This document shows positions 25,169-27,637 of a stretch of 64,000 nucleotides of DNA, piece by piece. The DNA is from Microcoleus sp. (lineage in GTDB: Bacteria; Cyanobacteriota; Cyanobacteriia; Cyanobacteriales; Microcoleaceae): positions 416,001 to 480,000 of the forward strand of contig JAYFMW010000006.1 of NCBI GenBank assembly GCA_042408215.1, given 5' to 3'. A model generated the notes under the pieces. It saw only the letters and a program-made list of their open reading frames with translations, made no database searches and was not told where the DNA came from. A program made the position numbers and the translations under genes. Each line of letters begins with the position of its first letter. Position 1 is the stretch's first letter.

Positions 25169-25303
25169 GCTCCAGCCCAGTCAATTAATCAACATATCCG
25201 GTTTTGTAGGGGCGGGTTCACCAATATCTATGATTCACATCTAGGATATTTATAAACCCGCCCTCCCCAACTCCGTCACGGATACAGGGATAGCTGTTTT
25301 TCC

Positions 25304-25567
25304 CAATTACGAATTACGAATTACGAATTACGAATTACGAATTACCCAATTACGAATTACGAATTACGAATTACCCAATTACGAATTACGAATTACCCAA
25401 TTACGAATTACGAATTACGAATTACGAATTACGAATTACGAATTACGAATTACGAATTCCCAATTCCCGATTCCCCATTCCCGATTACCCATTCCCCATT
25501 CCCAATTCCCCATTCCCCATTCCCCAATTCCCAATTCCTAATTCCCAATTCCTAATTCCCAATTCCC
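25304..25567. repeat. STRR tract (AATTACG / AATTCCC heptamers)
   Basis: Tandem 7-mers. Confidence 0.95.
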
Positions 25568-25616
25568 ACAAACTATATATTAGTAGAGCCAAACAAACCT
25601 ACCAAGAAATAGCAAA

Positions 25617-25667
25617 ATGACTACTGCAACCCAAACAAAATGCGCCTGTCCTTCTTGCTTGTGCATT
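25617..25667 (+). pseudogene. smtA: 5' half of a bacterial metallothionein (SmtA/BmtA), cut by an IS
   Basis: ATG at 25617 gives MTTATQTKCACPSCLCI, immediately followed by the IS right end. Confidence 0.88.
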
Positions 25668-25703
25668 TTGACATACTCCCCGGCGTGAACGCACGGGGAT
25701 TCT

Positions 25704-26866
25704 TTACGCTTCATCGACTGATGCCACCGAAATGGTCTTACTCTGTCTCGACGTACATTTAGAGTCGTGGCAATGCCCTATCCCGACTTTGTTTATATTC
25801 CTAGCTGCGTTCTCATCTCTGTCCTGTTCTGTGCCACAATTTAGGCACAGAATTGAACGAATTGAGAGGTCTAGTTTACCCCATTTAAACCCACAGTCTG
25901 AGCAGATTTGACTGGTGGGTTCCCAACGACTAATTACTCTAAAATTACGCCCAATTTTCTCAGATTTTGCCTCACACAAAGAACGGAATTCATACCATCC
26001 TTGTTGGCTAATTGCTCTGGCAAGTTTGCGGTTTTTGACCATTCCTGACACGTTCAAGTCTTCCAAAATAATAGTTTGGTTTTCACTGACTACTTTGGTT
26101 GATAATTTGTGCAAAAAGTTTTTGCGGATGTCGGCAATCTGATTGTGTGTTTTGGCTATTCTGATTCGAGTTCTATTTCTACGTCTTGAGTCTTTGGGTT
26201 GTCGTGCCAGCTTTTTTTGGAGTTTACGGACTTTTCTGTCTAACTTTTTATAGCTAGGACTTTCAGCTTTCTCTCCATTGCTCATCACGGCAAAAGTTTT
26301 AATCCCTAAGTCAATACCGATGCTTTGGTTTTTGGTATGAATACTGATGGGTTCAACTTCTACTACAAAACTGAGGAAATAGCGGTTGGCACAATCTTTG
26401 ACGATGGTTACAGAGCTAGGGATAGAGGGCAACTCCCTAGACCAAATTGGCAAAACACATTGCCAATTTTTGCCAAGTAGACTTCTTCTCCTTTGATTGA
26501 GAACCCTCCGCGAGTAAGTCTCGCTGACTGGCTATTTGTGCGCTTTTTGAATCTAGGGTATCCAACTTTTCGCCCTTTTCTTTTCCCTTTGCAGGACTCG
26601 AAAAAGTTTTTAAAAGCTGTTTCTAGATCGGCTACAGATTGCTGCAAGGGGATATTCGATACTTCACTTAACCATTCCCTCTCAATAGTTTGCTTGGCTT
26701 GAGTAATTACCACCTTTTGAAGTTCTGCCGATTTGGGCTTCTTCTCCGACTGTTTACACAGTGCAAGAGCATCATTCCAGACAACCCGCACGCACCCAAA
26801 CAGTTGAGCCAAACTTTGGCACTGTTGGTTAGTTGGGTAGAATCTGTACTGGTATCTGGCTTTCAC
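25704..26866 (-). pseudogene. tnpB: tnpB with one frameshift near 26450
   Basis: VKARYQYRFYP...YLAKIGNV and PIWSRELPS...GIDLG...LEDL...DRDENAA in two frames. Confidence 0.88.
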
Positions 26867-26921
26867 TGACTTCTGGAGTTTAGTTATGCTACCATTATAT
26901 ATCAATATGAAATACAATGCC

Positions 26922-27062
26922 ATGAACAAAAGTATATTTTTTCGATTAACAGAGGAAGAATTAGCACATCTTGAGGAGTATTGCCAAGCAGCCGAGAGAA
27001 CAAAGTCTGATGTGCTGAGAGAATTAATTAGAAAACTAAAAATAAATAAAAAGCCGTCCTAG
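26922..27062 (+). CDS. Small ribbon-helix-helix (CopG-like) protein inside the IS left end
   Basis: Manual translation MNKSIFFRLTEEELAHLEEYCQAAERTKSDVLRELIRKLKINKKPS* (46 aa, below the ORF-track cutoff); beta-strand/helix/helix pattern with SDVLRELI. Confidence 0.8.
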   Translation: MNKSIFFRLTEEELAHLEEYCQAAERTKSDVLRELIRKLKINKKPS

Positions 27063-27130
27063 AAGGACGGGGCTTGTATCCCATTATTTTCGGTCAAAGG
27101 TTTTTCTTAACTTGGGCGGAAGCTCAGCAC

Positions 27131-27241
27131 TTATTTGTTGCACTCGCAGCCGGTGTGGCCGCTGCCGGTGCCGTTGGGGTGGCCGTCAGCGCAGGCGCTG
27201 GAACAGTATTGTTTGCCACCTTTTTCAAGGGCTCCTCAAGG
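27131..27241 (-). pseudogene. smtA: 3' half of the metallothionein, in inverted orientation
   Basis: Minus strand reads ...ALEKGGKQYCSSACADGHPNGTGSGHTGCECNK*, matching the SmtA YCS.ACA.GH...GH.GC.C pattern. Confidence 0.88.
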
Positions 27242-27393
27242 TAATAACATTGTGTTATTATAGTGAATAGGAGTTTAAGATTCTGACGGAAATAGCTTCT
27301 GAATGGGGGTGTAGCTTATCTGCTACCATCAAGAGGTTGATTCGAGAGAAAAAGCCGTCCTTCTAGGACGGGGCTTTAGACCCAAAAATCATG
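27242..27393 (-). mobile_element. Orphan IS605 left end with a decayed RHH-like remnant
   Basis: TTAC target at 27397-27394, AAAG-CCCCGTCCTAGAAGGACGG hairpin; plus strand reads EFKILTEIASEWGCSLSATIKRLIREKKPSF*. Confidence 0.7.
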
Positions 27394-27637
27394 GTAAAGT
27401 AGATCTAAAGGGAGATGCGGTGTCCGCATTTCCCAATTTTTGTGAGTAAAGGTTAAAAAAAAGTTAAATTATAGGTAAGTTAAGGTTAAGATTGGATTAA
27501 TAAAGTCAGTACAGGGCCAAACAACGCAATTGCTACTTGCGCCATACAAGAGAAGCAAGTTAGCGCCACGACGCTAGATAAAAATAGCGCATATTGACAG
27601 TAGATACGCAAACCAAAATTTGAATTAGGAGGGGGCC

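Follow-up and report, generated by a model that had tools for sequence, protein, structure and literature searches.

TnpA of IS200/IS605 elements, as described in the passages of the literature that we draw on, cleaves only the top strand, at guide-set sites (PMC3333891). The rearrangements of such elements that parts of two further papers report are repeat-mediated core deletions and not flank inversions (PMC3119063, PMC7290912), and no description of a flank inversion at IS200/IS605 ends was found in the titles, abstracts and passages searched, a range in which subscription papers are mostly outside. For Escherichia coli, an excerpted model proposes template switching within 1–2 kb of single-stranded DNA at the replication fork (PMC3161906). 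No paper on a deletion of smtA or smtB was found in an open-access-weighted search. Here we describe a locus of Microcoleus sp., contained in a stretch of 64,000 nucleotides (hereafter the window), in which a metallothionein gene is split and its 3′ part is inverted. It is a three-junction micro-rearrangement of an already known type, tied to the right end of one IS605-type element (B) and probably followed by the ordinary insertion of a second one (A). The locus offers a well-resolved case of complex micro-rearrangement from a natural bacterial population, and another population has kept an intermediate allele.

Structure of the split smtA locus

The proteins concerned are SmtA and SmtB, the families being backed by Pfam matches (PF02069 and ArsR PF01022, respectively). 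In 40 distinct relative genomes (48 loci besides the two own ones, some genomes being represented twice), smtA is intact, collinear and plus-sense in one 55-codon frame, and the relatives' SmtA, represented by the 55-aa orthologue of G005, passes PF02069 with 91 bits against a cut-off of 33. In the window, smtA is split, lacks codons 18–22 (14 bases) and carries Cys46Ser (codon at 27161–27163), so that it does not encode the intact Cys-rich 55-aa protein; a Ser at a usual Cys position had been noticed by the sequence-only reading of this DNA, as had the adjoining of the plus-strand 5′ half to the right end of a tnpB element. The features of the locus are listed in Table 1.

Table 1. Features of the rearranged smtA locus in window coordinates
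Feature	Position	Strand	Basis
smtA codons 1-17 (MTTATQTKCACPSCLCI)	25617..25667	+	relatives' intact 55-aa protein
Element A, 1,425 bp, right end on the 25668 side, left end at 27092	25668..27092	-	hairpins at both ends
tnpB of A, two ORFs via frameshift near 26452-26456	25704..26929	-	ORFs 26408-26929, 25704-26453
Ribbon-helix-helix (RHH, CopG-like) ORF of A, divergent from tnpB	26886..27062	+	PF01402
GTCAA, last 5 bases of B right end	27093..27097	+	intact B ends GTGTCAA
Flipped block 1, 136 bp, smtA 3′ part and 33-bp spacer	27098..27233	-	125/136 identical to G005
Flipped block 2, 39-40 bp, upstream region of B's tnpB	27234..27273	+	36/39 to intact B
B remnant, left end and 3′ part of RHH gene	27271..27393	-	125/129 to intact B
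TTAC target of B, ancestrally 33 bp past smtA stop	27394..27397	-	empty site in relatives
Deletion joint, smtB and upstream smtA promoter/operator lost, ~0.5 kb	25574..25575	.	joint common to G008

Block 1 runs from the last base of codon 22 of smtA to its stop (27131–27233) and continues through the spacer to the insertion point of B. The minus-strand position of the 3′ half had been recognised before, but the 144 bp (27098–27241) then assigned to it exceed the smtA block, which has 136 bp; in relatives, similarity to the flipped block sets in no earlier than 27233, with 23 of the 24 listed relative matches beginning at query position 9 or later and one at position 6. The proposed restoration of a full SmtA by one added base, reading CLCIVNLE(E)ALEK, does not survive the comparison: since 27235–27273 matches the likely promoter of B's tnpB and relatives match only from 27233, the bases used for "NLE(E)" belong to B, relatives read, e.g., CIVSLSAAIEK, and 14 smtA bases are missing. 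The ancestral order would have been the smtA 5′ part followed by segments c (136 bp plus 8 bp of the B tip), d (1,281 bp with the hairpin and tnpB), e (the 39–40-bp promoter), f (52 bp) and g (RHH 3′ part and left end); the order now is smtA 5′ part, c reversed, e reversed and g, with d and f gone.

The arrangement is reproduced in assemblies from several studies. Nineteen of the 23 listed runs, from 10 studies, contain at least half of the sampled words of the stretch, and four of these runs (X14, X1, X2 and X13) were aligned to the window for the comparison of junctions. Single contigs of X14, X1 and X2 (studies P9, P1 and P2) are collinear with the window over 27056/27071–27355 with one, one and two differences, respectively, so that all three flip junctions lie inside one contig each in three studies, although X14 may be the source sample; contigs from the same runs also cross the joint at 25667/25668. 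SmtA matches in the 7.36-Mb, 99.98% complete genome are confined to the two places in the window (next E value 0.56). Both halves are therefore one smtA gene, present once in the genome. Assemblers could be misled by the more than 150 left-end hairpins of similar sequence, but with the junctions spanned in three studies and smtA in single copy, an assembly artefact or a pair of paralogous smtA genes is scarcely credible.

Upstream of smtA, G005 and G009 carry a divergent ArsR-type smtB, a 150-aa ArsR-family ORF in G005 (Pfam run on the G005 protein), and a TTGACA-containing region. Both the window genome and G008 have lost smtB and this promoter region at 25574/25575 (comparison loci: L053, G008:C74; L052 1872–2324, G005:C325), and no close smtB was found elsewhere in the own genome, the best match being 40% over 67 aa. 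The smtA of G008 carries changes including Cys36Trp and His48Pro. Judging from these comparisons, the loss of smtB and the promoter may have relaxed selection on smtA. No indication of a function for the rearranged product was seen. The possibility that the promoter piece of B gives the inverted 3′ half a start codon in frame was considered and rejected, as the in-frame ATG runs into TGA four codons on. The lineage, a freshwater cyanobacterium of wide occurrence (19 listed runs, 10 studies), lives with no intact gene for this metallothionein. Two further observations concern the surroundings of the gene. Long heptamer tandem repeats (GAATTAC, then CCCAATT-type) at 25300–25573 abut the smtB deletion joint, and G020 (L024, G020:C49) holds ~190 extra bases past the smtA stop that end in a repeat of stop-adjacent sequence, which looks like an unrelated small insertion.

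Elements A and B and the order of events

Element A is a tnpA-less IS200/IS605-type (IS1341-like) element, and Pfam matches back the family. Its tnpB matches PF12323, PF01385 and PF07282, the latter two being over the cut-off for both A and intact B, and its RHH ORF matches PF01402 (E 1.6e-5; 25.1 bits vs. a cut-off of 20.5). DNA folding gave hairpins of -7.3 to -9.4 kcal/mol at the ends of A and B. The small RHH ORF stands divergent from tnpB in A (26886–27062) and in B (G000:C6:120767–120904), where tnpA usually lies, and the RHH protein is possibly an autorepressor that would bind the 8-bp inverted repeat upstream of tnpB. At the tnpB frameshift of A (26452–26456), no difference from the window is listed in X14, X1 or X2, and X13 holds A-like contigs with two fewer bases there, which would keep tnpB in frame.

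An intact copy of B (1,503 bp; G000:C6:120737–122239) with an RHH-like ORF and an open 438-aa tnpB is present on the same contig. The boundaries of B, TTAC/...GTGTCAA/, are confirmed by the empty site in G008 with a gap of 0, and the empty site in relatives, GAAAAACCT/GTAAAG, lies 33 bp past the smtA stop. As the right half of this empty site is found at the left end of B in the window and the left half at the end of the flipped block, 27097/27098 is the native junction between the right end of B and its host flank, and not a breakpoint placed exactly at the edge of the target of A, as previously thought. Likewise, GTCAA was correctly located at 27093–27097, but it matches the tip of the right end of B. 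The 8-base tip of B stands at the end of 99 of the 114 right-end motif matches in the genome, and none of the 114 tips has another element nested in it.

The rest of B at the locus is incomplete and partly reversed. Window 27271–27399 (minus) matches the left part of intact B, and 27235–27273 matches G000:C6:120912–120950, just upstream of the tnpB of B, in the orientation opposite to that of the left part (identities in Table 1); at ≤6 mismatches, the latter stretch has no other match in the genome. Intact copies of B in X14, X1 and X2 give an opposite-strand joint at block 2, that of X1 continuing into the start of tnpB. Block 2 carries an 8-bp inverted repeat and is likely the promoter of B's tnpB. 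Missing from B at the locus are 52 bp of the 5′ part of the RHH gene and 1,281 bp comprising tnpB and the right-end hairpin, which persists only in the intact copy. The second flipped block and the two deletions within B had escaped the sequence-only reading, which let the second breakpoint abut the left end of a second element; that left end, at 27393, is 160 bp off, and the flipped promoter piece and the truncated RHH gene lie between it and block 1.

G005 bears a scar at the site of B (G005:C325; L052 2621–2635) that is identical to the first bases of the left end of B, and a metagenome contig (L076) 99.4% identical to G005 carries the same scar. Its form is what a deletion between two runs of AAAAA would leave, and it suggests a former presence of B at this site as well. 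In G008, the smtB deletion is shared yet the empty site is clean, so the history included precise excision, independent insertion or recombination of B. A search of 78 further genomes from the genus (E≤1e-20), with only eight or nine candidates scored per genome, found the B subfamily in none of them.

An allele that contains the flip without A was found in X13 (study P8). Record 9 (418 nt), a single contig of depth 3.1 from one study, consists of 25570–25667 without difference, 17 letters, and then 27093–27380 with eight differences over 288 nt; its joint omits exactly the 1,425 bases of A. The 17 letters equal codons 18–21 of G005, two bases of codon 22 and three bases of the B tip, which together with GTCAA make up the 8-base tip of the right end of B. 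The flip thus exists in an allele free of A, and the left break lies in codon 22. This break shows a 2-bp overlap and falls, on the B side, where the right-end hairpin has its 3′ foot; the flipped block begins at the same smtA position, so that the host break is reciprocal within 2 bp. The flip therefore belongs to B, and the earlier proposal that the inversion is linked to two adjacent left ends is not supported. Recombination between two inverted copies of A was also rejected, as the next best A is only 79% identical and the A-free allele already has the flip.

The complement of GTCAA contains a TGAC target beside the left end of A. In the X13 allele, TGAC occurs twice at a distance of 17 bp, in smtA codon 18 and in the B tip; in the window, A has its right end at the former site and its left end at the latter, and compared with X13 the locus has lost 17 bp, so that the site of A is not that of a clean insertion. 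The sequences would most likely be explained by insertion of A after the flip, at a TGAC target, with loss of the 17 bp, which is most simply ascribed to slippage between the TGAC repeats, either preceding or following the insertion. An ancestor that had received A first would yield the same X13 allele by precise excision of A, so this order is likely and not proven. Precise excision of A cannot restore smtA, as had been predicted.

IS605 ends elsewhere in the genome

The genome contains 156 left-end motif matches in at least five classes of guide and target, the guide 4-mer 5′ of the hairpin being paired by eye with its target as CAAG-TGAC, AAAG-TTAC, AAAA-TTAT, GAAG-TCAC and GAAA-TCAT. In the class of A, NTGAC stands upstream of 29 of the 50 matches (20 TTGAC, 6 CTGAC, 2 ATGAC and 1 GTGAC), and the remaining 21, which lack an NTGAC site, were not viewed singly. 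The target formerly given as TTGAC is thus borne out as the 4-mer TGAC, but not as a strict pentamer, its first base varying among A-class ends. Right ends are missing from 113 of the 156 left ends, a figure that depends on the narrow right-end pattern and was therefore disregarded. Y1_Tnp matches number 20, of which 19 are over the cut-off; none is on contig C6, and two stand beside A-class left ends. With TnpA genes elsewhere in the genome, TnpA is available in trans for A. Among other peculiarities of the left ends, a subset has an extra GC-rich stretch of ~13–15 bp between target and hairpin, and eight pairs of matches lie less than 400 bp apart. The hairpin loop (in the window at 27049–27075 and 27349–27376) reads TTCTA or TAGAA, which are reverse complements, depending on the copy, and it differs also between the two B copies; small loop flips seem common in these left ends.

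The sequence-only reading had called for a survey of other IS605 ends for target-adjacent inversions. For this survey, 141 of 142 stretches of G008 and G005, both incomplete genomes, were placed on the own genome, covering 1.13 Mb or ~15% of it and 50 of 270 end-motif matches; the smtA locus itself was detected. The outer flank is collinear at 37 of the other 47 ends, nine have no flank match, and one gave a short inverted match, which was rejected as a tandem-repeat artefact. None of the 38 testable ends in the 1.13 Mb thus has a flipped flank, and recurrence is not supported. Eleven rows were on the opposite strand, two being the smtA event, eight multi-copy repeats and one a single-copy block of 73 bp, seen between G008 and the own genome (L111 vs. 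G000:C3:98507–98579), 4 kb from the nearest IS605 end. The survey excludes a common effect but not a modest enrichment, and the rearrangement looks like a one-off accident and not a new kind of transposition.

Origin of the inversion and comparison with known systems

The flip junctions lie 6–8 nt inside the right end of B, in its promoter and in its RHH gene, and the overlaps amount to 2 bp (AG) between smtA and the B tip, 0–1 bp between smtA and the promoter, and 3 bp (GAG) between the promoter and the RHH gene. TnpA cuts immediately 3′ of TCAA and of the target tetramer, and none of the three junctions has such a position, which agrees with the earlier view that peel-and-paste transposition does not make this inversion. 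The right-end hairpin ranks in the top 0.4% of the 1,474 30-nt windows of B by strength, and the other three of the four breakpoints internal to B are at the 11th, 30th and 55th percentiles. A search for a Ku gene in the 99.98% complete genome found none, the control search being positive in Bacillus subtilis, so classical end joining is unlikely. Three clustered junctions with 0–3 bp of overlap within ~1.65 kb correspond to what is expected of FoSTeS/MMBIR-like events.

On these grounds, we consider it probable, with some reserve, that smtA was split and its 3′ half inverted through one burst of microhomology-guided template switching in B, and that A was inserted later. The deletion of smtB and the upstream promoter, shared with G008, would have come first and relaxed selection on smtA; B would then have inserted precisely at TTAC, 33 bp past the stop, as its matching boundaries suggest. 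Serial template switching by the host machinery in a replication fork could have made the three joins within ~1.65 kb, producing an inverted block of 144 bp (136 bp from the smtA side, 8 bp from the B tip) and the flipped 39–40-bp promoter and losing 1,281 and 52 bp. One switch would have taken place at the right-end hairpin of B, on its 3′ foot, where a polymerase would stall on single-stranded template. A, moved by TnpA encoded elsewhere, would have inserted at TGAC with loss of the 17 bp between the TGAC sites, and decay (Cys46Ser, the tnpB frameshift) would have followed. The comparison establishes the junctions themselves, and the three joins would stem from one event. The event size of ~1.65 kb fits the 1–2 kb given in the excerpted E. 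coli model (PMC3161906). Of the possible indicators of fork direction, the GC skew is weak, and the left ends along the contig point both ways. Possible intermediates were also sought: the right-end junction pattern has no match in JGI metagenome contigs, from which records near this genome may be excluded, the left-end pattern has one, the G005-like allele mentioned above, and neither an intact B at the smtA site nor a single flipped block was found among the genomes, runs and metagenomes searched. A programmed invertible switch was rejected, as no long inverted repeats at the ends appear among the 25 longest inverted pairs listed, no reciprocal joint at the locus appears among those listed for four runs (contigs drop rare variants), and flanking sequence was lost.

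The same junction chemistry would apply if the element itself were the cause, B having been excised on one sister, TnpB having cut the empty site and copy-back synthesis having switched templates three times. TnpB cuts are expected roughly 15–21 nt into the flank, and the flank stretch at this distance is unbroken in the flipped block; together with the absence of flipped flanks at the other ends (0/38), this makes a trigger by the nuclease of B unlikely, even though no junction lies more than 136 bp away from B, the intact copy has an open tnpB, G005 bears a different imprecise scar at the same site, and cutting of vacated sites by TnpB drives recombination according to the part of a preprint consulted (10.1101/2023.11.20.567912). 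A series of separate simple events, in which 3-bp inverted repeats mediated a promoter/RHH inversion, the smtA block was inverted on its own and tnpB was deleted, can also reach the end product by two inversions and one deletion, and the GAG/CTC overlap fits an inversion within B. Such a series would, however, have to use one breakpoint in smtA twice or combine three rare events within 1.65 kb, in a survey where the 1.13 Mb yielded one other single-copy inverted block and in the face of no intermediate found, and is distinctly unlikely.

The model of the sequence-only reading, or a variant in which A enters smtA first and the block is then flipped by recombination or by TnpA strand exchange, with GTCAA at the left end of A and in the B tip as partners, is the least likely of these three and very improbable. 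It draws on the left junction in the window, which is a perfect 5-bp inverted match, and on CTGAC being an accepted A-class target (6 cases), which would have let A enter the intact gene at codon 18, but the X13 allele puts the break 15–17 bp away in codon 22, and neither the flipped promoter nor the deletions in B are accounted for; TnpA moreover ignores the bottom strand in the passages describing it (PMC3333891).

Beyond this locus, we regard it as quite doubtful that IS605 right-end hairpins are a recurrent launch point for fork U-turns or stray TnpB-triggered repair that flip adjacent host DNA together with the tip. If they were, the same burst would disarm the element, with tnpB lost and its promoter reversed, and leave a TGAC that draws the next element, and IS605/TnpB elements would be local mutators of their own right flank, which encodes the TnpB guide. 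Recurrence of right-end flips would matter because IS605 elements are regarded as precise movers, and the survey gives no support for it.

Compared with the described cyanobacterial smtB-smtA locus, the relatives have the same divergent pair and a Cys-rich protein of 55 aa, and next to them lie a gene resembling those of metal chaperones and one for a ZnuA-type transporter, whereas here smtB and the upstream promoter are gone and smtA is a split pseudogene without a second copy. A and B resemble IS1341-type members of the IS200/IS605 family, as far as these are covered in the passages used, in their sub-terminal hairpins, the lack of terminal inverted repeats and a tnpB without tnpA in cis, as well as in insertion 3′ of a guide-matched tetramer, the right end TCAA and the absence of target duplication (gap 0 for B), while the flip is not a product of strand-specific excision or insertion (PMC3333891). 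They differ in that each has a small divergent RHH gene. Inversions attributed to template switching in E. coli share with this locus, in the parts of the model consulted, non-homologous near-reciprocal junctions within 1–2 kb, tiny overlaps, a hairpin junction and several switches; that model puts all junctions at structures, whereas here one of the four breakpoints internal to B is at a strong hairpin, and the cyanobacterial allele has no known stress or amplification context (PMC3161906). Relative to those cases, the present one is a natural cyanobacterial allele with three switches, two flipped blocks and two deletions (PMC3161906).
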